A DNA stretch of 64,000 bases, from the IMG/VR virus record IMGVR_UViG_3300021403_000005; one strand, 5' to 3'. How positions within the stretch are numbered: the first letter of the stretch is position 1; each line of letters opens with the position of its first letter. Made by a program: the position numbers and the translations under genes. Source of the stretch: a virus. Positions 14,641 to 51,908 of the stretch are shown here, one piece after another. Below the pieces are notes generated by a model. It made no database searches. It saw only the letters and a list, made by a program, of their open reading frames with translations, and was not told the origin of the DNA.

Positions 14641-14865
14641 CTACGGGTATAAAGCGATGTGGTAGAGATGCCCGGAACTGGTAGTGACCGTTAAAAATGC
14701 TGATGCCTCTGAGCTAGTAAACGTAATGCTCCCAACAGAGGATGGCGCCGTTGTTGAGACTCCAGTAGCCTGCGGAAACGTAACAGAAATCTGCTGCGTT
14801 AGCGTTTGAATCGCTGTCACGCCGTTTTGGAGAGCAGCGAGAATGTCTGCAAGGCTGGTAGCCAT
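14641..14865 (-). CDS. Small structural protein
   Basis: 74 aa; helical N-terminus, S/T-rich, ends with HIALYP. Confidence 0.65.
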   Translation of the reverse strand: MATSLADILAALQNGVTAIQTLTQQISVTFPQATGVSTTAPSSVGSITFTSSEASAFLTVTTSSGHLYHIALYP

Positions 14866-14874
14866 TAGGCGGCC

Positions 14875-14903
14875 TTGACTGCGTTAGGCCGCCATCGCAT
14901 ACT
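14875..14903 (+). promoter_or_regulatory. Sigma70-type promoter for the inverted HNH gene, probably giving a leaderless mRNA
   Basis: TTGACT (14875-80), 17-nt spacer, CATACT (14898-903); ATG 6 nt later at 14910 with no SD sequence. Confidence 0.6.
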
Positions 14904-14909
14904 TCTAGT

Positions 14910-15461
14910 ATGAGAGAGTCGTGGCGGCGTGTAATTCTGAATAGAGAGATTCTGCCTTATGAAGTCTCCAATCAAGGCCAAGTAAGACGGCTGCCTGGAC
15001 CAGACGGCGGCGGTCACACATGGCCACTTATGATAATGAGCCAACATACGCACCGTGCTGGGTACAAGCAGCTTGGACTGAGGTGGGTAAGTCAGCACGG
15101 TAGGAAATCCAAGGTCATCGTAGTTCACAAACTTGTCGCGTTTGCCTTTCTTGAGCCGCCTCCCGGTCAATATGGACGCGGGAAGATAGCCATTAACCAT
15201 AAAAACTCTATAAAGTCCGATAACAGAGCCGAGAATCTTGAGTGGGTTACATATCAACAGAACAGCAATCACGCTATGATTAATGGTCGAATGTCTGTTG
15301 GAGAAAGCAATCCGAATAGCCGATTTACTAATGACGATGTTCTTGAAATCAGACGTAGATTCGATGCGGGAGAAAGCATGAGGTCCCTGGCACGATCTTT
15401 TAATAGCAGCCGATGCCCTATTATGATGATTTGCAAAAGGTTGACTTGGAAACATCTTTAA
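14910..15461 (+). CDS. NUMOD4-HNH homing endonuclease with C-terminal HTH, antisense to the late operon
   Basis: YEVSNQGQVR (NUMOD4), VHKLVAFAF, INHKNSIKSDNRAENLEWVT (HNH), GESNPNSRFTNDDVLEIR. Confidence 0.9.
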   Translation: MRESWRRVILNREILPYEVSNQGQVRRLPGPDGGGHTWPLMIMSQHTHRAGYKQLGLRWVSQHGRKSKVIVVHKLVAFAFLEPPPGQYGRGKIAINHKNSIKSDNRAENLEWVTYQQNSNHAMINGRMSVGESNPNSRFTNDDVLEIRRRFDAGESMRSLARSFNSSRCPIMMICKRLTWKHL

Positions 15462-30318: not shown

Positions 30319-31233
30319 TTACTGCGTGGGGAACGTCCCATAGACCGAACGCCAGTCGTAGTAAGTGGGCACATAGCGCTGGTAGCCCTTGACCAAGAGG
30401 TTGTCCGTGGTGAACTCCACCGACATATCCATCTCGAAGGCTTTACGGTTGAAGAAGATAAGCCCATCGTGATTGGTGAGGATGAACCACGCATAGGAAG
30501 AGGTCAGGTAATCCCAGACCATAAAGCCTTCCTTGAGCGAGTCGTTCATGCCCAGAATCGCGTTGATATCGTTCTGTGCCGTGCCGGGACGAAGCTCGGA
30601 GCGGAACAGGCGTAACGCAATCGGCTCAAGATTCGGAGGCACAAGTACCTTGCGGCCACGCGCATGAATCTTCAGGCCCGCGTTGTCCTTCCAAGTGGAG
30701 CGGATGGTAATGAGAGCGTTCAGGAGTGAAGTCTCATTAAGGTCCACGTCCGGCGATGGCTGGTTGGCAATCGTCGCTTGGTCGATGGGATGAGCAGTAC
30801 TGAACAGAGAAACACCGTCGCCCTGCACCGCCGTATTGAAGGTCGTGCCCGTATTGAACACGTTCGCAGCATAGATTTCTTCGGTTTCCTTGAAGGATTC
30901 CATCAGACCATCGTTCGATGGTCCGAACTCTGCCTTGTAAAGGTTGTCGTCAATCGCCTTGCGAGTGATCGCGTAGCCAAGGCCAATCTCGAAATGCTCG
31001 GCGTTATAGACGAAGCGCTGACCCGCCGAGTTGTCGAAGGAGGTAGGCGCACCTTCCTGCTTCAACATCGCAAAGCCGAGGTAGCGAACCGCAGCACGCC
31101 GTTCGAGCGCCATGCTGGAATCGGTCTGCCGGAAAATCTTCGGCCATTGGCGTTCTATCATACTGTACTTGCCCGAGATGCCCCAAAGGCCCGGCAGCAA
31201 CAAATCGCGTATCTGACTTAACGCGACTGGCAT
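30319..31233 (-). CDS. Major capsid protein
   Basis: 304 aa; LLLPGLWGI.G.Y, KQEGAPTSFD, YAITRKAIDDNLY, SFKETEEI.AANVFN, GDGVSLFSTAHP, VPPNLE..A.RLF.SELRPGTAQNDINA; AAAGGA RBS. Confidence 0.85.
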   Translation of the reverse strand: MPVALSQIRDLLLPGLWGISGKYSMIERQWPKIFRQTDSSMALERRAAVRYLGFAMLKQEGAPTSFDNSAGQRFVYNAEHFEIGLGYAITRKAIDDNLYKAEFGPSNDGLMESFKETEEIYAANVFNTGTTFNTAVQGDGVSLFSTAHPIDQATIANQPSPDVDLNETSLLNALITIRSTWKDNAGLKIHARGRKVLVPPNLEPIALRLFRSELRPGTAQNDINAILGMNDSLKEGFMVWDYLTSSYAWFILTNHDGLIFFNRKAFEMDMSVEFTTDNLLVKGYQRYVPTYYDWRSVYGTFPTQ

Positions 31234-31271
31234 GGTAGTAATCCTTTGAAATTGCTTGTCAATTTTTCAAG

Positions 31272-31300
31272 TTGACAAGACACGTAGTTGACCATATATC
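31272..31300 (+). promoter_or_regulatory. Candidate sigma70 promoter for the inverted HNH gene
   Basis: TTGACA (31272-77), 17-nt spacer, TATATC; the -35 box is one arm of the 8-bp inverted repeat cttgtcaa/ttgacaag (31255-31279). Confidence 0.45.
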
Positions 31301-31343
31301 TTCCCATGTTTTTGGGTAGCAACCAAATCACAGGAGAGATACG

Positions 31344-32102
31344 GTGGACGAGACGACTGAAGAATGGCTTCCGATCCCCGGCTACGAAGGACAATACGAA
31401 GTATCGAATCAGTTTCGTGTAAGGCGCCTTGCGAGGATGGCGGAACACGGCATGGAGGGATTCAAGAGAGTCCTTGCTGCAAGATTGCTCTCGGTCTCGA
31501 ACAACAACGGCTACTTGGTGGTTTATCTCTGTCGGCCTGGACACCGAAAGAGAGCCAAAAAGTTCTATATTGAAGCCGCCGTTGAAAAGCTTTTTCCGGG
31601 CACCCTTCCAAAGATTCAAGATATTAGTGAGCCGGGAGAGGAATGGCGCCCTATTAGCGGATACGAGGGCCTGTACGAGGTTAGTAGTATTGGTCGAATC
31701 AAGAGCGTGGGATGGTACGTTAACAGAGGCGCCAAAAGACGCTACGCGAGGCCCCGCATCAGGATCGTTGGCATCGGGTCCAACGGCTACCCCAAAGTGG
31801 AACTTGCGATTAAGGGGAGAATCAGGACGGTTTCCATCCACCGACTTGTCGCGACAGCTTTCATTCCCAACCCCCTCAATCTTCCTATCGTCCATCACAA
31901 GGATGAAGATAGAACGAACAATCGAGTTGAGAATCTGGAGTGGGCTACGGCAGAGAAAAACATTGGCGATTGGTTTGACAGAAGGCGCGTCGTGATAACG
32001 CCCCACACCATCGAACGAATAGCCTTGGCCCACGCTTCCGGCAAAACCCCAGCCGAAATCCTGTCCTCTCTCCCGAGAAGAAGAAAGCCGCTGAAGAAAT
32101 GA
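31344..32102 (+). CDS. Tandem NUMOD4 plus HNH homing endonuclease, antisense to the late operon
   Basis: Two EEW.PI.GYEG.YEVS repeats; IHRLVATAFIPNPLNLPIVHHKDEDRTNNRVENLEW; CAGGAGA RBS with GTG start. Confidence 0.9.
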   Translation: MDETTEEWLPIPGYEGQYEVSNQFRVRRLARMAEHGMEGFKRVLAARLLSVSNNNGYLVVYLCRPGHRKRAKKFYIEAAVEKLFPGTLPKIQDISEPGEEWRPISGYEGLYEVSSIGRIKSVGWYVNRGAKRRYARPRIRIVGIGSNGYPKVELAIKGRIRTVSIHRLVATAFIPNPLNLPIVHHKDEDRTNNRVENLEWATAEKNIGDWFDRRRVVITPHTIERIALAHASGKTPAEILSSLPRRRKPLKK

Positions 32103-32132
32103 CGGAATAATAAAGAACACTTGCGATCCTTA

Positions 32133-32777
32133 CTAAGTAGAAGCCGCGTTGAGAGAGTTGCGCGCCCACAGATTGGGACGAACAACGAGAATATTCGCAC
32201 CCTCGGAACCGCTCGACGTGCCATTGACGCCCGGAGGCGCGAAGTTGGCGTAAACGTCAACGACGCGGAACGGAGAGGTGGCCGACTGAATCGTGGGCGC
32301 CACCGAAGAAGCGAGACACTGACCGGATTGGCCAGTCGTGGTGTTGCCCGCAACGGACGAGGCAATCGCGATGCCCCATCCAATATTCGATGAACCGATC
32401 AGAGTCGCGGTCGTAGTTGAGACTTGGGCGATAAAGAGTTGCTGGGGATTGTCGATGACGTAGGCATTGCATGGTGAACTGGAACCGACCGAGGCCGGGA
32501 AGTAGCTGTTCCAGACGGTGCGGCCAACCGATCCGTTGTAGTATTCGCAACCAACGAATACTCCAGCAATGACATAGCCACTCGAAGCGACTAGCGGCGA
32601 GATGGTGTTCGGGTTGGTGCCGAAGGCTTGCGCCGAACTCAGCAAAACCACGTCGCCAGTGTAGTAGGAATTGGTATCGCTCGATGCGATGAAGTAGCGG
32701 CTCATGCCCCCGGTCGGGGCAGTCCCCTCTTGCTGGCCAAAGGGCCGGAAACCGAAAGGACTGAATGTGTTAGACAA
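32133..32777 (-). CDS. Capsid-associated structural (cement/decoration) protein
   Basis: SNTFSPFGFRP, YYTGDVV, GVFVGCEYY..GRTVW..YFP, YVIDNPQQLF; AGGAGG RBS with TTG start. Confidence 0.75.
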   Translation of the reverse strand: MSNTFSPFGFRPFGQQEGTAPTGGMSRYFIASSDTNSYYTGDVVLLSSAQAFGTNPNTISPLVASSGYVIAGVFVGCEYYNGSVGRTVWNSYFPASVGSSSPCNAYVIDNPQQLFIAQVSTTTATLIGSSNIGWGIAIASSVAGNTTTGQSGQCLASSVAPTIQSATSPFRVVDVYANFAPPGVNGTSSGSEGANILVVRPNLWARNSLNAAST

Positions 32778-33261
32778 TGTTGCCTCCTGTTGCGGCGTCT
32801 CTAGCTTTCACAGCCTGACCTAAGCAGGCGAATGTCTCACGATAGATTGTTTCACCGTCCCTAAAAACTTGGACGTGAAAACTCTTGCGTTTTCGACTGA
32901 TATTTTTGATACCCAGCGTACTGTTAGACCAGCCGCCAGAGTTCACCATATTGCCGCTACGAGAAACCTCCCGTAGATTAATAAGGCGATTATCGTCTTT
33001 GTCTCGATTGATGTGATCTAGTTCGATTGGCCATTCGCCATAAACGTAAAACCACGCGAGACGATGAGCCAAGAATCGAGAACCGCAAGCGCGAATCACC
33101 CTATAACCTGTAGCCAACACAGTACCGGCCACAGACCCGATAGGACTTTGATGGAAGCTAGTAAGACGAATAAACTCGCCGGTTTCCGCATCGTAACACA
33201 AATAGGAGCGCAGAGCCTCTTGGCTCAATGCCCTCTCCTTATCTACGTTTCGATTGGCCAT
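32770..33261 (-). CDS. HNH-AP2 homing endonuclease
   Basis: LRSYLCYDAETGEF, LAHRLAWFYVYGEWP.ELDHINRDKDDNRLINLREVS..N, AP2-like C-terminus; GGAG RBS before ATG 33261. Confidence 0.9.
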   Translation of the reverse strand: MANRNVDKERALSQEALRSYLCYDAETGEFIRLTSFHQSPIGSVAGTVLATGYRVIRACGSRFLAHRLAWFYVYGEWPIELDHINRDKDDNRLINLREVSRSGNMVNSGGWSNSTLGIKNISRKRKSFHVQVFRDGETIYRETFACLGQAVKARDAATGGNIV

Positions 33262-33282
33262 GTATGGCTCCATCGACTGTTG

Positions 33283-41351: not shown

Positions 41352-41569
41352 ACCGAAGCGATCTCGATGATTTGGAAGAGAAGATCATGGACGAATTCGC
41401 CAAGCGGCGCGCTCTCGGTGGATTCGATGCTAATGCCGCTACTATTCTGCTCTTGATTCGATGGGTTTACGAACTCACACGACACCTTAAGGATAAAGAG
41501 CCAAAATCCAAGGAAGCCGAAGTCGATCTTGCGGGAGCCAGAGTCGAACTACGCCCGAAGAAAAAATGA
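41348..41569 (+). CDS. Small hypothetical protein
   Basis: ATGA overlaps at both ends. Confidence 0.6.
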   Translation: MNRSDLDDLEEKIMDEFAKRRALGGFDANAATILLLIRWVYELTRHLKDKEPKSKEAEVDLAGARVELRPKKK

Positions 41570-42084
41570 CCCCTCCGTTAAGTACGTTCAATCTGGTCTT
41601 GATGCCATATCAGCAGCGCCTCCTGCGTCAGCAACACGTTGATTGGCTCAATGATAAAGAACTCATGAAGTATTCCGAGCAGCGCCATCGTAAGCATACG
41701 ATGGAGACGCAGCGCGAATACCTTTGGACCTTTCCTAAGACCTCGCACATCTGGCTCATTGAATTTGGCCCACCGCCAGTCCCGGAACTGCGAGCCATCG
41801 GCACCATCACAGCCTACATAGACCAGCCCAACAAAGTTGCCAATATGGGCATCTTGCTTGGGGAAGAGAAGGGCTATGGCCATGGTTTGGCAGCATGGTC
41901 AGCGGTGATGGAGTTTCTATTCGCAGATGGAATCCGCAAGGTTGAGGCTGGATGTATGGCCGTTAATGAGCCGATGCGGTTGCTTGCCACCAAAGCCAAG
42001 ATGAATGTCGAAGGGGTTATTCCTGAGCATTATCTATTCGAAGGTAAGCCCTGCGATCTCATTAACTATGGGAAAACCAAGTGA
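41566..42084 (+). CDS. RimJ/RimL-type GNAT N-acetyltransferase (PseH-like role)
   Basis: HVDWLND.E.MKYSEQRH, IGTITA, MGILLGE.KGYG.G..AW, RKVEAG.MA.NEPM. Confidence 0.8.
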   Translation: MTPPLSTFNLVLMPYQQRLLRQQHVDWLNDKELMKYSEQRHRKHTMETQREYLWTFPKTSHIWLIEFGPPPVPELRAIGTITAYIDQPNKVANMGILLGEEKGYGHGLAAWSAVMEFLFADGIRKVEAGCMAVNEPMRLLATKAKMNVEGVIPEHYLFEGKPCDLINYGKTK

Positions 42085-42653
42085 AGGTTCTGCTGCTTTC
42101 GCCCTACCCAGAGCGCCTTGCAGATATTTTGCGAGATGATGATGTTGTTCCTCTCGTCTCCAAAATTCACTGGCCAAACGTCGATTTCGTTATCTCCTAT
42201 GGACACCGCGAGATCATAAGAGAGCCGTACTTATCCGAATACAAAGGACGGATAATAAACATCCACCTCAGCCTATTACCATGGAATCGCGGCGCCGATC
42301 CGAATTTCTGGGCGTGGTTTGATAATACTCCACATGGCGTCTCCATCCATCACATAGATGATGGTATAGATTCTGGACCGATCATCTTTAACGGCACAGT
42401 TGATATGACCCTCGATCCAATCGGAACACTGGAGTCATCATACGGCATCTTGCAGAACCACGCCGTATATCTCTTTGGTATTCTCTGGGAAAACTTTAAG
42501 TACAAAGGTAAGCTGCCCCGAGGCCGCCCTAATGAGGGGGGCACCTACCATAGGTCCAAAGACAAAGAGCAATGGATGGCGCGATTCCCGCTCGGCTGGA
42601 AAACTCCTGTCGCAGATGTAATGGCACTCGGAAGAAAAGCCAATGGCCGCTAG
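42081..42653 (+). CDS. Sugar N-formyltransferase (Formyl_trans_N only)
   Basis: VISYGHREII, IINIHLSLLPWNRGADPNFW, GVSIHHIDDGIDSGPII; 190 aa with no tRNA-binding C-terminal domain. Confidence 0.85.
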   Translation: MKVLLLSPYPERLADILRDDDVVPLVSKIHWPNVDFVISYGHREIIREPYLSEYKGRIINIHLSLLPWNRGADPNFWAWFDNTPHGVSIHHIDDGIDSGPIIFNGTVDMTLDPIGTLESSYGILQNHAVYLFGILWENFKYKGKLPRGRPNEGGTYHRSKDKEQWMARFPLGWKTPVADVMALGRKANGR

Positions 42654-43329
42654 CCAAACCGAGAGATTCCTGCATGGCGCTGGCGATGATTACTACATGC
42701 GCAATCGCAATGATTTCGGCCAAAAGGAAAAGGACCCGGTTCTCTCGATACTAAAAGCCACCGAAATTAAGCCTACATCCATACTGGAAATAGGCTGCGC
42801 TAATGGCTGGCGCCTCATGAAGCTCAAGGGACTCTACAACTGTCATGTACGAGGCATTGATCCCTCGACTATGGCTATCCAAGAAGGATCGAAGGATTTA
42901 GGTGGCGATCTACAGGTGGGGGTCGCCCAACACATACCATTTGATGCCAACAGCTTCGATCTGGTGATATTCGGCTACTTTATGTTTCTCTGTGAACCAA
43001 ATTCTTGGTTCCAGATCATGGCTGAGGCCAATCGTGTTCTAGCAGATAAAGGGCACATCGCCCATTACGATTACATCAGCGCCCGACCTTTGGTTTGGGA
43101 ATACGCCCCAGCCAAAGCGTCCATTCGCGAAAAGGAATGCCGAGCCTGGGTCTATGACCACGCCAAAATGTGGCTCAGTCACCCCGGCTACTTTGCCGTC
43201 GCAGAAGGCACCGGACCTTGTGAATTAGGTAAAACCGTTGCCTGCCAAGTTATGGTCACATTGTTACAGAAAGACATGACTCGTTCGTTTCATAAACCAG
43301 ACGGCACGATACCTGAGTTTACACAATGA
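42643..43329 (+). CDS. Class I SAM methyltransferase (nonulosonate-cluster type)
   Basis: F..GAGDDYY.RN, ILEIGCANGWRL, GIDPS, FDLVIFG. Confidence 0.85.
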   Translation: MAASQTERFLHGAGDDYYMRNRNDFGQKEKDPVLSILKATEIKPTSILEIGCANGWRLMKLKGLYNCHVRGIDPSTMAIQEGSKDLGGDLQVGVAQHIPFDANSFDLVIFGYFMFLCEPNSWFQIMAEANRVLADKGHIAHYDYISARPLVWEYAPAKASIREKECRAWVYDHAKMWLSHPGYFAVAEGTGPCELGKTVACQVMVTLLQKDMTRSFHKPDGTIPEFTQ

Positions 43330-44279
43330 CCAAGACATTCGGGATTCTCGGCCACGGTTCTATTGGAAAGCGCCATGCACAGAATCTCGTGCGGCTTGGT
43401 CACAAGGTCCTAACCTTTGATCCAAGCAATCCTATCCCCAAGTCGGCGCCACCATTCATAGCAATGCACGATGAACAAGACTTAATTAACAATGCCGATG
43501 CTATTCTCATATGCAGCCCCACGGCACTGCATTATGAGCATCTCGTTAAAGGCCTCTTTGCCAGGAAACCGATCTTCGTTGAAAAGCCCATAGGAGATAC
43601 CGAGAAGTGTCACTTCTTGGGATCGGTCATGGGACGCGATCCATTTATGGTTGGCTACAATCTGCGCTTCCATTCCTGCGTTAAGAAAGCCAAGGAGTGG
43701 CTCGACAACGGTATTCTTGGCCAGATTCAATGGGCGAGCTTCGTGGTGGGGCAGAAGAACGACAAGCTCGACTACCTCCGCGACGGTGTAATCCTCAACT
43801 GGTCGCATGAGATTGATCTGGCGCTGTACCTACTGGGTCCAGCGAAGGTGTTACAGGCTTCCGCTCGTGTCACAGGTTCCGGTGAGGATATAGCCGACAT
43901 TTGGCTACAACATGACAGCGGCGCTCGATCATCCATCCACTTGGACTATGTAACCAAGCCTGAGATTCGTGAGGCTTGGATTGTCGGCGCCAATAACAGG
44001 ATTGGTATGGACCTTGTTGGGCGCAATGCCTCGCTAGGTGAATACGTCCATCGCGGAGACGACAGCTTCGATCAGAACTATGTAGAGGAAATACGGGCTT
44101 TTATTGACCGCATAGATGGCAAGGAGACAATCGGATGCAACGCAAAAGAAGGGTTGGCCGCCCTAGAAATATGCCTCCAAGCGCGCCGCCTAGCCGGACT
44201 ATCGAGCGAGACGTTCGCCCACTCGATTCCTTGGACGCCGCCTTCGGAATCTACACCGACCCCGAAATCCAACTCCTGA
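43326..44279 (+). CDS. Gfo/Idh/MocA NAD-dependent oxidoreductase
   Basis: GILGHGSIGKRH, ICSPTALH, IFVEKP, VGYNLRFH, SHEIDLALYLLG. Confidence 0.9.
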   Translation: MTKTFGILGHGSIGKRHAQNLVRLGHKVLTFDPSNPIPKSAPPFIAMHDEQDLINNADAILICSPTALHYEHLVKGLFARKPIFVEKPIGDTEKCHFLGSVMGRDPFMVGYNLRFHSCVKKAKEWLDNGILGQIQWASFVVGQKNDKLDYLRDGVILNWSHEIDLALYLLGPAKVLQASARVTGSGEDIADIWLQHDSGARSSIHLDYVTKPEIREAWIVGANNRIGMDLVGRNASLGEYVHRGDDSFDQNYVEEIRAFIDRIDGKETIGCNAKEGLAALEICLQARRLAGLSSETFAHSIPWTPPSESTPTPKSNS

Positions 44280-44430
44280 TTAAGTCACACGCCAAGAATA
44301 TCATTGGCTTCAGCTATGGCGGTCCTACAGGAGAGATGACGATAGAAACACACAATGCGATTCTACGCGAGGCTAATCGCATCCTCTTCCTGTGCAAGAG
44401 TATGCAGCTAACTACCAAACGAACACGGTC

Positions 44431-44595
44431 ATGAAAGCCTCTAAATACTCCGTCCAATATACCGATCACGGTACAAAGCAGGAACACTGCTCGATCTGCA
44501 AACATTACGTCTCGCCTGTGATCTGCGCTGTGGTTGAGGGCCGCATCAAGGCTGGCGGCTGGTGCAAGAAATTCGAGAGGAAAAACGAAGAATGA
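44431..44595 (+). CDS. HiPIP-like [4Fe-4S] protein lacking a Tat signal
   Basis: KASKYSVQY...HCSICKHY...CAVVEGRI..GGWCKKF; four Cys in HiPIP spacing; ATGA overlaps at both ends. Confidence 0.7.
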   Translation: MKASKYSVQYTDHGTKQEHCSICKHYVSPVICAVVEGRIKAGGWCKKFERKNEE

Positions 44596-46631
44596 AGGTC
44601 TTAGCGATTGCGCAGGCTCGGATGGGTTCAACGCGCGTGCCCGGCAAGGTTATGCGGAGGATGGGAGAGTATAACCTTCCAGTCTTACATTGGGTGTACG
44701 ACGCCCTTATCCAAGCTGAAGGCATCGACCAAGCCGTTATAGCTACCTCTACTTTGTCAGAGGATAATATTATTGCGGGGTACTGTAGAGATACCGCGAT
44801 TCCATTCTTTCGTGGCAGTGCGCTGGATGTGCTGGACCGATTCTATCAATGTGCGCTTCGTTATGATGCTGATATAGTCTTGAGATTAACCTGCGACTGC
44901 CCATTCCTTGACCCTCAAGTTATTGGCGAAGTCATCAAGCTTAGGAACATAACCAATGCCGATTACACCTCAAACATTGATCCCCCAAGCTACCCCGATG
45001 GACTCGATGTTGAATGCTTCACCTTCAAGGCTTTGGAAGCCGCTTGGGAAGAAGCGACTCGACCAACAGACCGAGATTGCGTTACTCAGTTTATCGTTCG
45101 TAATCGCCATCGCTTTAGCGCTGCTAATCTACGGTGTCCTCTGCCTGGGCTAGATAAGGAGCGCTGGGTTCTCGATACCGAAGCTGACTGGAACTTCTGC
45201 AAAGCAGTAGCGGAGCATATCCGCTGTGGTGGTCAACCCTATCTTAAAATACTCAACATCCTCGATGAACATCCCGAGATTCGTAAACTCAACCCAGGAA
45301 TCCGCAATGAGCGATTCTTTGAAGCAATCAACACAGAGCGATTACCCCCACGAACATTTGAGCGGACTGCGGGAGTATTCAAGCGAGCCATCAAGACTAT
45401 ACCATTTGGGGCGCAGACATTCTCGAAGTCTCACCTTCAGTTTCCGCGCGATCATAGTCCTCTTTATTGCAGCCATGCTGATGGGGCTAGGCTCTTTGAT
45501 GTTGACGGAAACGATTACGTTGACTTGGTTAACGCTGTGCTGCCTGTTGTACTTGGCTACCGTGATCCTGATGTGGATGACGCAATTCGACTGCAACTGG
45601 ACCGAGGAATTTCCTTCAGTCTCGCGACTGAGCTTGAAGCGGAGCTATCGGAAACCCTCTGCCGACTTATACCGTGCGCACAAGCGGTCAAACTCGGCAA
45701 ATCAGGAACGGACGTTACCACTGCTGCCATTCGTCTAGCGCGAGCCTATACAGGCAAGAGCCACGTTCTGTTGTCCGGCTATCATGGCTGGGCAGATTGG
45801 TCTATGGCGGCGAGTCAGCGCGACGCTGGGATTCCGTTGGCCACCAAGCTTCTATCACACAAATTCGAGTACGGTAACTACAACGACGAAGAACTGAATC
45901 GCTGGATTGGCGATGCCGCTGCGATCATTGTCGAACCGGACAGCAATCCAGAATACCTAAAGTTCCTGCGTGAAGCCTGCGACGAACACAATGTCGTTCT
46001 GATCTTCGATGAAATCATTACCGGCTTCCGTTATCACATCGGTGGCGCCCAAGCGTACTGGAACGTAACACCAGATTTAGCCACCTTCGGCAAGGCGATG
46101 GCTAATGGGATGCCGATTTCGGCCCTCGTCGGCAAGCGTGACATAATGGCTCGCATGTCACCACCGAACAACATCTTCTATTCCGGCACGATGTTCGGTG
46201 AAACCCTCTCTATTTCTGCCGCAATAGCTACAATCAAGAAAATGGAAAAAGAGGATGTTATTGGCTACCTCTATCACGTTGGGGCAGAGATTCATTCTGA
46301 AGTTGCCCCAAGCATTGCTTTCCATGGCCTTCAAGACGTTATCAAACTAGACGGCCACTGGACACGCAAAATCATCAATATCCACGACCACAGGAACGCC
46401 ACTAAGGAAGAAATCAAGGCTCTGTTCATGCAGGAGATGATCCAGGGGGGCGTGCTAGTCATTGCCTCGCACAATGTCTCCTACGCTATTAAACAGAACG
46501 AGGTTAAGCGCATCCTCACTGCTTACAATCGAGCTTTGACCACGATCAATCAGGCTTTGGAGAACAACAACATCTCCGACTACATAGATGCTCCGCTCAT
46601 CGGTGTGGCGCCGCTGCGGACCACAGCATGA
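44592..46631 (+). CDS. SpsF/PseF-like cytidylyltransferase fused to a class III (GSA-aminomutase-like) PLP aminotransferase
   Basis: N-terminal QARMGSTRVPGKV, FRGS.LDVLDRFY, RLTCDCPFLDP, LDTEADW; C-terminal DVDGNDYVD, LIFDEIITGFR, ATFGKAMANG.PISA. Confidence 0.9.
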   Translation: MKVLAIAQARMGSTRVPGKVMRRMGEYNLPVLHWVYDALIQAEGIDQAVIATSTLSEDNIIAGYCRDTAIPFFRGSALDVLDRFYQCALRYDADIVLRLTCDCPFLDPQVIGEVIKLRNITNADYTSNIDPPSYPDGLDVECFTFKALEAAWEEATRPTDRDCVTQFIVRNRHRFSAANLRCPLPGLDKERWVLDTEADWNFCKAVAEHIRCGGQPYLKILNILDEHPEIRKLNPGIRNERFFEAINTERLPPRTFERTAGVFKRAIKTIPFGAQTFSKSHLQFPRDHSPLYCSHADGARLFDVDGNDYVDLVNAVLPVVLGYRDPDVDDAIRLQLDRGISFSLATELEAELSETLCRLIPCAQAVKLGKSGTDVTTAAIRLARAYTGKSHVLLSGYHGWADWSMAASQRDAGIPLATKLLSHKFEYGNYNDEELNRWIGDAAAIIVEPDSNPEYLKFLREACDEHNVVLIFDEIITGFRYHIGGAQAYWNVTPDLATFGKAMANGMPISALVGKRDIMARMSPPNNIFYSGTMFGETLSISAAIATIKKMEKEDVIGYLYHVGAEIHSEVAPSIAFHGLQDVIKLDGHWTRKIINIHDHRNATKEEIKALFMQEMIQGGVLVIASHNVSYAIKQNEVKRILTAYNRALTTINQALENNNISDYIDAPLIGVAPLRTTA

Positions 46632-47569
46632 AGAAAGTCTTAATTTCGGGTGGCACAGGTTCGTTTGGCAATGCGTTCGCACGACGCATTATAGCCCATA
46701 ACCCTGAGCGCGTGGTGATCTATTCGCGCGATGAGCAGAAGCAGGAAGAAATGGCACGGCGATTCCCGCAGCGATTCTTTCGATTCTTCCTAGGAGATGT
46801 GCGCGACCAGGACCGCCTCGAATACGCTATGCACGACATTGATACGGTTATCCATGCAGCAGCACTAAAGATTGTGCCTGCTTTGGAGTATAACCCCACC
46901 GAATGTGTTGCGACCAATATCGGTGGTGCCCAGAATGTCGTTAGAGCCGCCATCAACAGCGGAGTTAAACGAGTCATCGCCCTGTCCACGGATAAGGCGG
47001 TCCACCCGATCAACCTTTACGGGGCATCGAAGCTGGCGGCGGAGAAAATCTTCATTGCCGCCAATGCTCTCGCTGCGGGCGCAACTGCTTTCAGCGTTGT
47101 ACGTTACGGTAATGTCGTGGGTAGCCGTGGGAGCGTTGTTCCTTATTTTAAGTCTCTTGCCGCCGCCGGGAAGCCACTGACAGTTACCGATACGCGCATG
47201 ACGCGGTTCTGGATCACGCTGGATCAAGCGGTCGATCTGGTCCGGCTTGCTCACACCAAGATGACCGGGCGAGAGATTTACATCCCGAAGATTCCGTCCG
47301 TAAAGATCATGGACTTGGCGCTGGCCATATCTCCGGCATGGGAAGTCACCGGCATCAGGCCAGGAGAGAAGCTGCATGAGTGTCTCCTGACCAGGGATGA
47401 GGCGCGCGATACGCTCGATATGGGCGATTACTACATTATCACCCATCCTGGATGGCAAGGTCAGATCGGCTCTGGAATCCCAGTCACGCCTGACTTTACC
47501 TACACCTCTGACACCAATCATCAATGGCTCAGTATAGAACAACTCAAGGAATCGCTCAATGAAGCCTGA
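46628..47569 (+). CDS. pseB: UDP-GlcNAc 4,6-dehydratase (inverting), PseB
   Basis: GGTGSFG, YSRDEQKQ, GDVRD, HAAALKIVP..EYNP.E, LSTDKAVHPINLYGASK, VRYGNVVGSRGSVVP, TRFWITL, GIRPGEKLHE. Confidence 0.92.
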   Translation: MKKVLISGGTGSFGNAFARRIIAHNPERVVIYSRDEQKQEEMARRFPQRFFRFFLGDVRDQDRLEYAMHDIDTVIHAAALKIVPALEYNPTECVATNIGGAQNVVRAAINSGVKRVIALSTDKAVHPINLYGASKLAAEKIFIAANALAAGATAFSVVRYGNVVGSRGSVVPYFKSLAAAGKPLTVTDTRMTRFWITLDQAVDLVRLAHTKMTGREIYIPKIPSVKIMDLALAISPAWEVTGIRPGEKLHECLLTRDEARDTLDMGDYYIITHPGWQGQIGSGIPVTPDFTYTSDTNHQWLSIEQLKESLNEA

Positions 47570-47738
47570 GAACATCATAAACGAAATCACTCAGGTTCGA
47601 TCACGCAATAATTTTCTCTGGATGAGTCTCCTTACATTAGCCATGAAGGCCAAGCCTAAAGAAGCCAAGAAAATCTTACAGGCTATCAACGAAAACGATA
47701 AGGAGATTTCCGGGTGGCTAGAAAAGCTCCAACACTAA
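47559..47738 (+). CDS. Unlisted 59-aa helical protein between pseB and pseC
   Basis: Hand translation: MKPENIINEITQVRSRNNFLWMSLLTLAMKAKPKEAKKILQAINENDKEISGWLEKLQH; AAGGA RBS; overlaps both neighbours. Confidence 0.65.
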   Translation: MKPENIINEITQVRSRNNFLWMSLLTLAMKAKPKEAKKILQAINENDKEISGWLEKLQH

Positions 47739-48829
47739 AGCGGCTACCTAAATTCTTCACGGTAGGATCACAGGAGAGAAGGAATGTGCAACGCGCGCTT
47801 GGGCGGCAGCTATCTGGCTATGTTGGCGGTATCCATAATGCTGGTTACTGGGTTGACCGCCTCTCCGTCGAGTGGACCAACACGTTTCGATGCCGATACG
47901 CTATACCCTGCAATTCAGCTACCTCGGGTTTGTTGGCTTGTTGCATGGCAGCTTCTATTGGCCCCGGAGATGAAGTTTGGGCATCCTCGTACACTATGTC
48001 CGCGTCTGGGGCCTGTGCCAAAGTATTGGGTGCCAGTGTTAAATTCATCGACATAGACTTGGTACGCTATTCTCTCAATAGCCCTACCTCTTGGACAACA
48101 AAGCCAAAAGCGATCATCGTTACCAACCTATTCGGGCACCCCGCCTACTTAGCGCAGATACGCAGAACATGCGACGATAATGGCATCGTCATGATCGAGG
48201 ATAACGCTCAATCACCCTTCGCAATGGAGAACGGTAAATATGCAGGGACCATCGGACACTACGGCGTCTTTAGCTTCAACGTCCACAAGCACATCCAATC
48301 TGGAGAGGGAGGAGTGGTTACGACAAACGATGCAGAAAGTGCTGAGAGAGTTAGAAACGCAGTTAATCATGGAGAACTGGCTGCCAAAAACCCCTCCATC
48401 GGACTCAACCTGCGAATGACGGAGCCAATAGCTGCGATTGCCTCGGCGCAGCTACATAGGGCGCACGACATTATCGAGAATCGGCGCCATCTGGCAGATG
48501 AACTTACCGACGCTGCGAATCAATCGGCCTACCTGATTCCTCCGGTGGAATCGAAGGGCTGCAAGCATGTCTATTACATTTGGGCGTGCAGGGTATTGGA
48601 TGGCAAGCGGGAAGCGTTCGTGACCTTTCTCAACAAGCACTGCTTTCCGGTACGTGCTGGCTATTCCATACCTTTGCATAGGTTATTCAAAACCAACGAT
48701 CAGTGTCCACTGACCGAACGCATGGAGGACAGGGAACTGGTCAGCTTCGAGATTTGCATGTGGCGCCCGAATACCAGCGAAGTATCCAAGATGAAGCGCA
48801 TCATCAAGATAGCAGGAGAAAGCCTATGA
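47714..48829 (+). CDS. pseC: DegT/DnrJ/EryC1/StrS sugar aminotransferase (PseC role)
   Basis: CNSATSGL, IEDNAQSP, FSFNVHKHIQSGEGGVV (PLP Lys), GLNLRMTEPIAA, HVYY. Confidence 0.85.
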   Translation: MARKAPTLKRLPKFFTVGSQERRNVQRALGRQLSGYVGGIHNAGYWVDRLSVEWTNTFRCRYAIPCNSATSGLLACCMAASIGPGDEVWASSYTMSASGACAKVLGASVKFIDIDLVRYSLNSPTSWTTKPKAIIVTNLFGHPAYLAQIRRTCDDNGIVMIEDNAQSPFAMENGKYAGTIGHYGVFSFNVHKHIQSGEGGVVTTNDAESAERVRNAVNHGELAAKNPSIGLNLRMTEPIAAIASAQLHRAHDIIENRRHLADELTDAANQSAYLIPPVESKGCKHVYYIWACRVLDGKREAFVTFLNKHCFPVRAGYSIPLHRLFKTNDQCPLTERMEDRELVSFEICMWRPNTSEVSKMKRIIKIAGESL

Positions 48830-49215
48830 GTGCCATTAAGCAAAGATTCGTAACCTCAGCCCTTCCCGGCTTCTGCGTTGCAGAATTTATCCCCGGAGAC
48901 GCTGAAAGAGGGCCAGAAATATTCCTAGAACCTATTGTTACATGGGTAACGGAAATCGAAGAAACTGAAAAGTATGCCACAAGTAAAGATTATTTCCTGA
49001 TGGCAACTTATCCGGTCTGCTACGGGATGCTCACTGATAGCACGGTATCTTATGTAATATATAGCCCAGATGGCAAATACTGCTTTTCTGGGGATTGTAC
49101 TGTTAATTCTAAAGAAGAAGCCATCCTAGTCTTTATAGAGAGAGAAAAGATAAAACAGGAAATACAGCAACGGCTGCGAGATAAGCAATTGTTGAAAGGA
49201 TATAAGAAATCATGA
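48826..49215 (+). CDS. AT-rich hypothetical protein
   Basis: AGGAG RBS and ATGA overlap with the pseC stop. Confidence 0.6.
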   Translation: MSAIKQRFVTSALPGFCVAEFIPGDAERGPEIFLEPIVTWVTEIEETEKYATSKDYFLMATYPVCYGMLTDSTVSYVIYSPDGKYCFSGDCTVNSKEEAILVFIEREKIKQEIQQRLRDKQLLKGYKKS

Positions 49216-49544
49216 AAATCGCAATAAAAAAACGCAACCAAAGGATCAAGCCCGCACAAAAGAAGGCAAGCGACGACAAGGTTGCCAAGTACATTGTTAA
49301 GCTTCTAAGTAGAATCGAAAGTCTTGAAAAGGAATTAGGGCAATGCAAAGAGCAGCTTAATCAAAACTGGTATCACCGAGAGAAAAGAGAACAGCGGTTA
49401 GCAAAACTTTTGACTCCAGACCAAAAAGAAGCTGCCAGAATATCTGGCATTTCTCAGTATGAATATGCCGTGCGGTTTATGGAAATTCAATACGCCAAGA
49501 CTGCCACCAATATATTAACGGGTAATCTTGATGATGATCGCTAA
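49212..49544 (+). CDS. Coiled-coil hypothetical protein
   Basis: ATGA overlap; LTPDQKEAARISGISQYEYA resembles the C-terminus of the scaffold protein. Confidence 0.6.
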   Translation: MKIAIKKRNQRIKPAQKKASDDKVAKYIVKLLSRIESLEKELGQCKEQLNQNWYHREKREQRLAKLLTPDQKEAARISGISQYEYAVRFMEIQYAKTATNILTGNLDDDR

Positions 49545-50535
49545 GACCGAGATCGCTCAGTGTGCCTTCCCTTATATTGTTTGTGAAATATCAGGCAATC
49601 ACGGTGGTAGCCTAGAACGCGCCAAACAGCTTATCAAAGAAGCCAAGAAAGCTGGAGCGGCTGCGGTCAAGACGCAATGCTACAACGCTGATACATTGAC
49701 GTTGAACTGCAACAAGCTGGACTTCATCGTACAGGGCGGTCTATGGCAGGGCAAGACGCTATACGAACTTTATCAATCCGCTTGTACTCCACCGGAATGG
49801 CACAAGGAGCTATACAGTGTCGCCCATGACGAAGGCATTACGATCTTTTCTTCGGTGTTCGACCGCAGTGGGATCGACCTACTCCAATCTCTCGGCTGTC
49901 CGGCATATAAGATTGCGAGCTTTGAAGTGGCCGACCTACATCTTATCGAGTACGCAGCTAAGACAGATAAACCAATCATCATCTCGACGGGCCTCGCCAA
50001 CAACCAAGAAATAAGAGAAGCGCGCGAGGCGGCTGGTCCCAACTCCGCGTTCCTGCATTGCACCAGCGAGTATCCAGCCGATACCGACAATGCCGATATG
50101 TGGCGCGTCCATAGGATATACGAACTGCTCCACAAAGAGTGCCCTGTAGGGCTGTCCGATCATAGCAGCGGGCATCTGTTGCCGATCATGGCGACCGCGA
50201 TGGGGGCGGCGATCATTGAGAAGCACCTCAAACTGCGATTGGCGCCCCCAAGCGAGGACGATGCGTTTAGCCTGACACCGGCCGAGTTTGCGGGCATGGT
50301 CACGGCCGTCAAGCAAGCCTGGAGCGCGGGGCTGGAGCATGAGCAGCCTGCGAATCCATCACGGCAATTCCGCAGAAGCCTTTATGTTATCGAGGACATA
50401 CGAGAAGGCGAGCAGTTCACCGAACTGAACATACGCTCGATCCGGCCGGGCTTTGGAATGCCGCCGAAGAACTATTCCAAGATGCTGGGGAAAAGAGCCA
50501 AAAAAGATTATAAGCGCGGCGACCCCTTATGGTAG
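49531..50535 (+). CDS. pseI: NeuB-family nonulosonate synthase with SAF domain, PseI
   Basis: EISGNHGGS, VKTQCY..DT, LYELY, IFSSVFD, YKIASFE, IIISTG, LHCTSEYP, VGLSDHS, IIEKH, FRRSLY, RSIRPGFG. Confidence 0.9.
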   Translation: MMIAKTEIAQCAFPYIVCEISGNHGGSLERAKQLIKEAKKAGAAAVKTQCYNADTLTLNCNKLDFIVQGGLWQGKTLYELYQSACTPPEWHKELYSVAHDEGITIFSSVFDRSGIDLLQSLGCPAYKIASFEVADLHLIEYAAKTDKPIIISTGLANNQEIREAREAAGPNSAFLHCTSEYPADTDNADMWRVHRIYELLHKECPVGLSDHSSGHLLPIMATAMGAAIIEKHLKLRLAPPSEDDAFSLTPAEFAGMVTAVKQAWSAGLEHEQPANPSRQFRRSLYVIEDIREGEQFTELNIRSIRPGFGMPPKNYSKMLGKRAKKDYKRGDPLW

Positions 50536-50542
50536 GGAAGCA

Positions 50543-50638
50543 CGTGGGCGAGTGAAACGGATACCCGGTCAGTGACCGGGGGATCATTTCAGTCTCATAA
50601 ACTGAAGATAGTGGGTTCGACTCCCATGCCCGCAACCA
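50543..50638 (+). tRNA. tRNA with CAT anticodon (Met or Ile2), encoded CCA, and a 17-nt hairpin inserted in the D-loop
   Basis: Acceptor CGTGGGC/GCCCGCA, discriminator A, CCA; D-stem GTGA/TCAT; anticodon arm TCAGT-CTCATAA-ACTGA; T-arm GTGGG-TTCGACT-CCCAT; 96 nt total. Confidence 0.8.
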
Positions 50639-50656
50639 ACCATCAGGAGCTACAGC

Positions 50657-50923
50657 ATGAGTTACCAAGGCCAGACAGCAGAGAGAAATCCTACGCCTGC
50701 CAGCCTTACAGAAGGCGGTGTGAACATGAACTCTCGCCTTCGCGAGATTCGTGATCGCATTAGCAAGATTGCCGATAACATCCACGGAATGAGCCTCAAA
50801 GCTGCCGGTGAGGGAAAAGCAGAAGCGCCACCGACAAATAGCTTACGTCGCAATCTCGATGTAGGATTCAACTACATCGACCAGATTGAAGCTGAACTCC
50901 ATCGGCTTGAACTCAACCTCTAA
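50657..50923 (+). CDS. Small hypothetical protein
   Basis: AGGAG RBS before ATG 50657 (an alternative start at 50726 is possible). Confidence 0.5.
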   Translation: MSYQGQTAERNPTPASLTEGGVNMNSRLREIRDRISKIADNIHGMSLKAAGEGKAEAPPTNSLRRNLDVGFNYIDQIEAELHRLELNL

Positions 50924-50941
50924 AAGCGATACAATCTTTCT

Positions 50942-51062
50942 GCCTGAGGGGTCCGCCATCCCAAGCCCCGAGGGTTTTTCTCCGTGTTGTACTGACCCCC
51001 GCCGAATCTTAAGGCCGTTTCTCCCGGCCTGCCCTCCCCCGGCGGGGGTCGCCTTTTCAGGC
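50942..51062 (+). other. GC-rich nested stem-loop (terminator or structured RNA) ending the sugar operon
   Basis: gcctga/tcaggc encloses gacccccgccg/cggcgggggtc (11 bp), which encloses aggccg/cggcct. Confidence 0.5.
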
Positions 51063-51131
51063 TTGACTTCCCCACATAGCAATAATAGATAATTCCTACT
51101 TGGGAATACACCCAATACAAAGGAATATCTT

Positions 51132-51908
51132 ATGGCTAAGGCCAAAAACGGACGAACACTGGTTACCTTCCTTCTGGATCGCACTGGTTCAATGGAATCG
51201 GTCAAGAAGGCTACGATTGAAGGTTTCAACGGCTATGTTGAAACGCTTCAGAAAGAGAAAGCAGCCGATATCGAGTTCACGCTCATTACCTTCGACACCC
51301 AGAGCATGGACAAGATTTGCGTCTGCAAGCCAATCAAAGGCGCTCCGAAGCTGGACGAGAAGAACTATCAGCCTCGTTCAGGCACCAACTTGATCGACTG
51401 TGCCTACGACACCATCAAGGCGGTTGAAGGCCAGGAGAAGGCCAAGGGCGCCAAGATTGTGATCTGCTTCCAGACCGATGGTGAGGAGAATTCCTCGCAC
51501 AAGCATACATCTGAGGAGCTTAAGACCCTGATCGAGGAAAAGACCAAGCTGGGTTGGCAGTTCAACTTCATGGGCTGCGGAATCGACGCCTATGCTCAAT
51601 CGGCTCGGATGGGAATGACCTACGCCCAGACCACATCCTATAGCCCGGATGCAGCATCGACAGATGCTTCCTTCCGTGCCAACGCCATGAATACCTCTCT
51701 TTATGCCGCAGGAGCCAGAGACAATACCTCCTATACCAACGTGCAAAGAGCGGCTTCTGGTGATAAGTTCTATCATTACCAGAATGGTCTTGTTGGCAAT
51801 TTTGGCCTTACCGGGACTCCCGTTAAAGGTCCAATTCCAACACAGGGGCCGCTAGACCTAAATGACGCCAGCAAGCCAAAAGATTCGTCTCTCGACCTCA
51901 ATGGCTAA
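51132..51908 (+). CDS. vWA-domain protein
   Basis: MIDAS residues LLDRTGSM, T.LIDC, QTDGEENSS; WQFNFMG. Confidence 0.88.
   Translation: MAKAKNGRTLVTFLLDRTGSMESVKKATIEGFNGYVETLQKEKAADIEFTLITFDTQSMDKICVCKPIKGAPKLDEKNYQPRSGTNLIDCAYDTIKAVEGQEKAKGAKIVICFQTDGEENSSHKHTSEELKTLIEEKTKLGWQFNFMGCGIDAYAQSARMGMTYAQTTSYSPDAASTDASFRANAMNTSLYAAGARDNTSYTNVQRAASGDKFYHYQNGLVGNFGLTGTPVKGPIPTQGPLDLNDASKPKDSSLDLNG

Follow-up and report, generated by a model that had tools for sequence, protein, structure and literature searches.

The stretch of DNA analysed here (referred to as the window) comprises 64,000 nt of the IMG/VR virus record IMGVR_UViG_3300021403_000005, a genome segment of a soil phage. A long virion operon lies on its minus strand. 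Directly ahead of the major capsid protein gene (identified by PHROG 371 and by tblastn to annotated capsids) is an inverted HNH endonuclease gene, and the operon-strand frame that mirrors it is open throughout, forming an ORF tentatively referred to as the "bridge". The junction consists of the following features:

30319..31233, minus strand: major capsid protein gene (304 aa, ATG at 31233)
31218..32120, minus strand: bridge (filler) ORF (300 codons, GTG start, codon-in-register with the HNH gene)
31242..31247, minus strand: AAAGGA, SD of the capsid gene, 8 nt ahead of its ATG
31272..31300, plus strand: predicted sigma70-type promoter of the HNH gene (TTGACA-17-TATATC, with the -10 box ending 43 nt ahead of the HNH start)
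31332..31336, plus strand: AGGAG, SD of the HNH gene, assigned by sequence
31344..32102, plus strand: NUMOD4-NUMOD4-HNH endonuclease gene (252 aa), running opposite to the virion operon
32127..32132, minus strand: TAAGGA, a second stop and SD-like site of the bridge ORF
32133..32777, minus strand: upstream virion-operon gene (214 aa), ending in TAG at 32133

The 214-aa upstream gene matches no family in Pfam or PHROG, and relatives conserve it at the same place, immediately before the capsid gene. Its TAG is followed by TAAGGA (32132-32127), 6 nt, and then the GTG at 32120, so that the bridge starts 12 nt past the stop. The bridge ORF reads through the SD of the capsid gene and terminates at a TAA (31220-31218) located out of frame inside capsid codons 5-6, giving a bridge-capsid overlap of 16 nt, stop included. 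The remaining two minus-strand frames over the insert contain 11 and 15 stops. Because the two frames are codon-in-register, the bridge is open wherever the HNH gene avoids TTA, CTA, and TCA (referred to as mirror stops), none of which occurs in the gene. An earlier sequence-only reading had claimed an antisense ORF bridging the inverted HNH gene ahead of the capsid gene, and this was confirmed, including start, stop, and register. The in-register shadow that it also reported over pseB is real, but is a 234-codon run without mirror stops, and three mirror stops are present elsewhere in pseB.

Judged on the window alone, the bridge ORF is not clearly beyond chance. The probability of finding no mirror stop over the HNH gene is 0.006 under the pooled codon usage of the window and 0.057 under local usage, and stop-free shadows of 200-244 codons lie over other genes of the window, pseB among them.

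Two further regions of the window were recorded in passing. A third HNH gene (32770..33273), same-strand and located directly upstream, has 3 mirror-stop codons in 168, like ordinary genes. At 41566..51908 on the plus strand, opposite to the virion operon, is a sugar-nucleotide modification gene cluster encoding a PseB-like dehydratase, two aminotransferases, a formyltransferase, and a methyltransferase.

Occupied and empty capsid junctions

In most of 80 viral contigs that carry a close capsid gene, the upstream and capsid genes are only 11-15 nt apart (referred to as empty alleles), with a TAAGGAG-like RBS overlapping the upstream stop, 11-15 nt ahead of the capsid ATG. An additional same-strand gene is present in two of the 80 contigs, and a related HNH gene lies inverted at the same junction in three, so that occupied alleles number four (the window counted) among about 80 close capsid relatives. 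About 20 HNH-free relatives have an untranslated structured spacer of 82-92 nt just ahead of the capsid start. This spacer (L001:3918-4001, L002, L011, L014, L028, L037, L042, and about 13 more) contains a conserved RNA-like hairpin with compensatory changes in five of its six consensus pairs and a conserved AAC bulge. It has no match in Rfam, and could possibly be a cis-regulatory element of capsid translation.

A protein search identified an HNH subfamily of about 53 proteins, and DNA was available for 20 distinct loci including the window, in all of which the HNH gene is inverted directly upstream of a capsid gene. Six loci were left out as near-duplicates (L171, L177, L178, L251, L253, and L255), one as partial (L174), and one (L176) as a different, frameshifted site. 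In five short-spacer loci the HNH starts may be set too far upstream. The search turned up no member of this HNH subfamily in same-strand orientation, which leaves the most direct control absent. On a FastTree capsid tree, occupied alleles are interspersed with empty ones, at no fewer than 7 separate positions, although no formal clade test was made. Such scatter is expected of a mobile cassette, an inference drawn from distribution; homing and cleavage are themselves only inferred.

Two side observations concern these alleles. In the excluded locus L176 (571-1714), an HNH gene of the subfamily occupies a non-capsid site and has a frameshift near its 5' end, and over 331 codons its mirror frame remains open. 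The capsid start codon is GTG or TTG in 7 of the 20 occupied alleles (L040:4001, L071:4001, L081, L086, L173, L250, and L256) vs. none of 58 empty ones, a contrast that is partly confounded, with several of these loci belonging to a distant clade that lacks an empty comparator.

The endonuclease gene itself contains two Pfam NUMOD4 domains and an HNH_3 domain (PHROG 1492/59/959), and in 54 relatives H185, N197, and N206 are invariant and H166 nearly so. With NUMOD4 and HNH domains, a position between two intact genes, and both occupied and empty alleles of one site, it meets three criteria of a free-standing HNH homing endonuclease gene, and by domain, position, and distribution it is an ordinary member of the NUMOD4-HNH type.

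The gene probably has a host-type promoter of its own and is transcribed in opposition to the late operon, an inference from sequence alone. A TTGAC-17/18-TA pattern facing the HNH gene is present in 13 of the 20 loci (1.9% of shuffles), 12 of them at the same offset from the capsid start as in the window. The AT-rich promoter region that the sequence-only reading had placed inside the insert thus corresponds to a conserved, predicted sigma70-like pattern. A consensus promoter and terminator scan returned nothing relevant in the insert. In 8 of the 13 promoter patterns the last T of the -10 box is missing, a form described for Alphaproteobacteria (PMC7703639), which hints only weakly at an alphaproteobacterial host; no relative came up when GTDB was scanned with the capsid and the C-terminus of the HNH protein, and the host is therefore unidentified. 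An inverted repeat at 31259..31279 of the window (arms TTGTCAA/TTGACAA) overlaps the predicted -35 box of the HNH gene, and might serve as an operator or, ahead of the capsid RBS, form an RNA hairpin.

Mirror stops and boundaries of the bridge

In all 20 loci the in-register operon-strand frame is open across the whole insert, for 274-383 codons, whereas the other two frames contain 5-25 stops. No TTA, CTA, or TCA is present in 5,734 HNH codons, compared to 2.3 mirror-stop codons per 100 in 40 GC3-matched control HNH genes, where CTA and TTA make up 12% and 9% of Leu codons and TCA 16% of Ser codons. The expected number of mirror stops is 87, about 16 of which come from two loci without host genes (pseudocounts). 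The purge is specific to mirror stops, because other A-ending codons (GGA, CGA, AGA, CCA, and GAA) are common in the subfamily. Nor can shared ancestry explain the open frame: the HNH genes of the 20 loci for the most part show 45-55% identity, and with 0.30-0.34 of four-fold sites identical (0.29 expected) those sites are nearly saturated, so that the frame has stayed open through many synonymous changes. The purge extends beyond the gene: the spacer from HNH start to capsid start (59-125 nt) adds up to 605 in-register codons without a single stop, whereas the other two frames have 21 and 44. Judged across homologues, the bridge ORF is far beyond chance.

Both ends of the bridge fit the neighbouring genes. 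Nineteen of the bridges start with ATG and one with GTG. Relative to the upstream stop these starts lie at -1 to +14 nt, and in 6-7 loci the two codons overlap by one base (TAATG or TGATG). The bridge follows whichever gene is upstream, because in L071 it begins directly after an extra inserted gene. At the other end, bridges stop at -3 to +16 from the capsid start and are never fused in frame to the capsid; those in the capsid's own frame always terminate just ahead of its start codon. The 11 bridges that enter the capsid gene are all in one frame and stop at +10 or +16. A stop by +16 in that frame is present in 11/11 of these alleles vs. 27/58 empty alleles (Fisher p=7e-4, related loci treated as independent), and in three of the nine occupied alleles in which the bridge ends earlier. 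Selection for openness and for matched boundaries of the bridge is thus shown, computationally.

A control scan revealed a second case within the window itself:

14910..15461, plus strand: second inverted HNH gene (183 aa, no TTA, CTA, or TCA), distantly related to the first (about 35% identity across the HNH core)
14865..15455, minus strand: second bridge ORF (196 codons), with its ATG 2 nt past the stop of a tail-collar gene

The TAA of this second bridge overlaps the ATG of the next gene (TAATG), and in two relatives without the second HNH gene the collar gene abuts the next gene. Relatives that do carry it are less regular. In L284 the frame has one mirror stop, and 52 nt later an SD and ATG reopen it to 1 nt before the next gene, an arrangement that we infer from sequence to be a two-piece relay. 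L285, an AT-rich relative (GC3 0.33), has 7 mirror stops, a 245-nt gap, and only partial cover. Because L285 is broken in this way, a bridge is not obligatory for every inverted HNH gene. Several other control HNH genes that appear inverted (orientation assigned automatically) also carry mirror stops. So does T4 segD, which has 9 of them and no bridge; it lies behind the intrinsic terminator of gene 23, where we infer that none would be needed. As a separate observation, the tail-collar gene in L284 (2939-3076, minus strand) and L285 (858-998, minus strand) has lost its usual stop and has a C-terminal extension of about 46 codons into the HNH mirror frame.

A proposed ribosome relay and its rivals

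The best explanation, to which we assign a probability of about 0.75, is that the bridge acts as a ribosome relay protecting capsid expression, with both its translation and the nature of the benefit being inferred. In this view, a mobile HNH cassette (promoter, SD, and gene) would insert backwards between two closely coupled virion genes, probably inside one late messenger, where it would otherwise leave about 0.9 kb of ribosome-free late messenger directly ahead of the capsid gene. Selection would then make a filler ORF of the HNH mirror frame. After terminating at the end of the upstream gene, ribosomes may re-initiate at an ATG or GTG no more than 14 nt from that stop, read through the whole insert while making a junk peptide, and terminate a few bases from the capsid start, allowing re-initiation or at least clearing of the capsid RBS. 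Capsid output would thereby be maintained via termination-reinitiation and/or escape from Rho polarity and naked-mRNA decay. The independent second HNH gene of the window, which has a bridge of the same design, supports the relay, as do the two-piece arrangement in L284 and the lack of a bridge over T4 segD behind its terminator.

Several findings count against such a relay. The capsid SD is kept in every occupied allele (20 loci), and the capsid start is no more structured in occupied than in empty alleles; a need for coupling is accordingly not evident. The roughly 20 empty alleles with an 82-92 nt spacer tolerate untranslated structured RNA at the capsid junction, and the broken bridge of L285, with its mirror stops and gap, also stands against the relay. 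Transcript data do not help: in one soil metatranscriptome the region is represented by unstranded contigs of flat depth over 19.6 kb, possibly DNA, which show no joint across either insert and are uninformative on transcription or splicing.

The functional claims of the sequence-only reading fared differently. It named common antisense stops in homologous inverted insertions as a refutation, and the opposite was seen, with 20/20 stop-free and both ends boundary-matched. That the element keeps ribosomes on the late mRNA across its insertion is supported by the purge and the boundaries, and that it delivers them to the capsid start is supported by the enriched termination there (11/11 vs. 27/58); translation is only inferred in both. 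Its view of the AAGGA as the original capsid RBS is plausible, as empty alleles have TAAGGAG overlapping the upstream stop, yet occupied alleles retain a capsid SD. Avoidance of Rho polarity was not shown to be the specific cause. A rut-like bias of C over G on the late strand of the insert is absent (C/G 1.04 vs. 1.07 in the capsid gene), and a Rho target is not evident because this strand is not C-rich and G-poor. The evidence does not tell coupling apart from Rho polarity or RNA protection; how tightly the 3' end sits at the capsid start points, again by inference, to coupling or to ribosomes clearing the capsid RBS.

The strongest rival, unlikely but still live, holds that ribosome traffic over the bridge mainly shields the late messenger from pairing with the HNH transcript, to which it is fully complementary there, and the ensuing cleavage of double-stranded RNA (RNase III type), or from nucleases, with ribosome delivery to the capsid start and Rho being secondary. 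In its favour, the predicted HNH promoter faces into the operon (13/20 loci), and about 0.8-1 kb of complementary RNA is therefore expected; the capsid's own SD and the lack of rut-like bias also fit. Shielding alone, however, leaves the tight end of the bridge (11/11 by +16 vs. 27/58) unexplained, though avoiding occlusion of the capsid RBS could account for it.

Less probable still is that the antisense ORF encodes a functional protein, e.g., a nuclease inhibitor or virion component. A good start context, a length of 274-383 aa, and presence in 20/20 loci speak for it. So do a mild, about two-fold depletion of TAT (mirror ATA) in the HNH genes, which would fit translation of the bridge and is only a small hint, and the use of GAA for Glu238 in 18/18. 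Against it, mirror residues vary freely at invariant HNH residues (V169 to D/N/H/Y; A170 to R/G/C/S), and synonymous HNH changes are not extra conservative for the mirror protein (BLOSUM of mirror changes 0.387 vs. 0.379 expected). The sole invariant bridge residues are three prolines that mirror HNH tryptophans, and the tail of the bridge over non-HNH DNA is unconserved. The peptide belongs to no Pfam or PHROG family and has no usable Atlas match, and AlphaFold with a 20-row alignment gave no confident fold (pLDDT 37, pTM 0.19). In one relative of the second element (L284) the frame is split in two. With saturated synonymous sites and free mirror residues, the criterion of a protein-coding overlapping gene, namely purifying selection on the antisense peptide, is not met. 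The bridge is likely best read as a filler ORF, of which the openness and the two boundaries are selected and the peptide is not under detectable selection.

A chance shadow ORF, arising from low TTA, CTA, and TCA use in a moderately GC-rich gene, would suit the window-only probabilities (0.006-0.06) and the 200-244-codon shadows over other genes including pseB, but is all but excluded. It is refuted by the homologue survey, in which 20 diverged loci lack any mirror stop in 5,734 codons (2.3 per 100 in matched controls), the intergenic portion is purged too, and starts and ends fit the gene boundaries at every locus. Equally close to exclusion is a self-splicing intron or intein with the open frame as a by-product: known inteins include some that carry an antisense homing-endonuclease gene and keep the host frame open (bioRxiv 10.1101/2025.01.02.630785), but the insert lies between genes, in no locus does its bridge continue in frame into the capsid, and neither an intein domain (Pfam) nor an Rfam intron family was matched. 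The only Rfam match, a sub-threshold miRNA, was rejected.

Comparison with known systems

A bridging mirror ORF over free-standing endonuclease genes was not described in the literature searched, although most subscription papers were outside the search. Beyond the capsid junction, a bolder reading of the ribosome relay is that translated filler mirror ORFs have arisen repeatedly, and independently of one another, over selfish endonuclease genes that lie inverted in phage virion operons. We consider this likely, with translation being inferred. If true, the only role of the filler ORF would be to carry ribosomes between host genes, selected for occupancy and boundaries and not for its product, and a mobile gene could insert backwards into an operon without polarity. 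Besides introns and inteins, a selfish gene would thus have a further route to harmlessness for its host, i.e., to stay in the messenger and keep the messenger translated. The bridge would also illustrate cleanly how a long ORF can be strongly selected while its peptide is not, an ORF of a kind missed by annotation tools or called a hypothetical protein, and a natural design for non-polar inverted insertions. One HNH-silent change would be a simple test of how far translational continuity matters in phage late expression.

Among known systems, the mob and seg genes of T4 are free-standing phage homing endonuclease genes (reviewed in PMC2988022). The window insert resembles them as an intergenic gene with its own promoter, beside a conserved essential gene and patchy among empty alleles, and T4 segD is likewise antisense beside the major capsid gene (PMC2988022). 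The T4 genes are, however, all co-oriented except segD, which has no bridge. The relevant passages of the review contain no filler ORF, and the coupling discussed there concerns expression of the homing endonuclease gene itself.

The "hidden" HNH insertions of ShiLan in actinophage methylase genes (PMC11855218) are similar in that mobile HNH DNA keeps a second frame stop-free, so that host translation crosses the insert. In ShiLan, however, the host gene itself contains the insertion, whose open frame forms part of the host protein; the HNH is read in another frame, and the antisense strand is not mentioned. The window insert is intergenic and antisense, and what stays open there is an independent ORF with start and stop codons of its own; it thus does not belong to the ShiLan type. 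Inteins with antisense LAGLIDADG or VSR-like endonuclease genes share an opposite-strand endonuclease and an open host-sense frame (10.1101/2025.01.02.630785), but there the open frame is spliced out of the host protein, whereas the window insert has no splicing domain and interrupts no protein. With no Pfam or PHROG match and a separate start and stop, the bridge does not qualify as an intein either.

Intervening ORFs, such as leader peptides and non-polar cassettes, are generally known to give translational coupling and relief of polarity. In the ribosome relay, the bridge would resemble them in being translated for ribosome occupancy and re-initiation rather than for its peptide. It differs in being the mirror frame (270-380 codons) of a functional gene and in being maintained by a selfish element.
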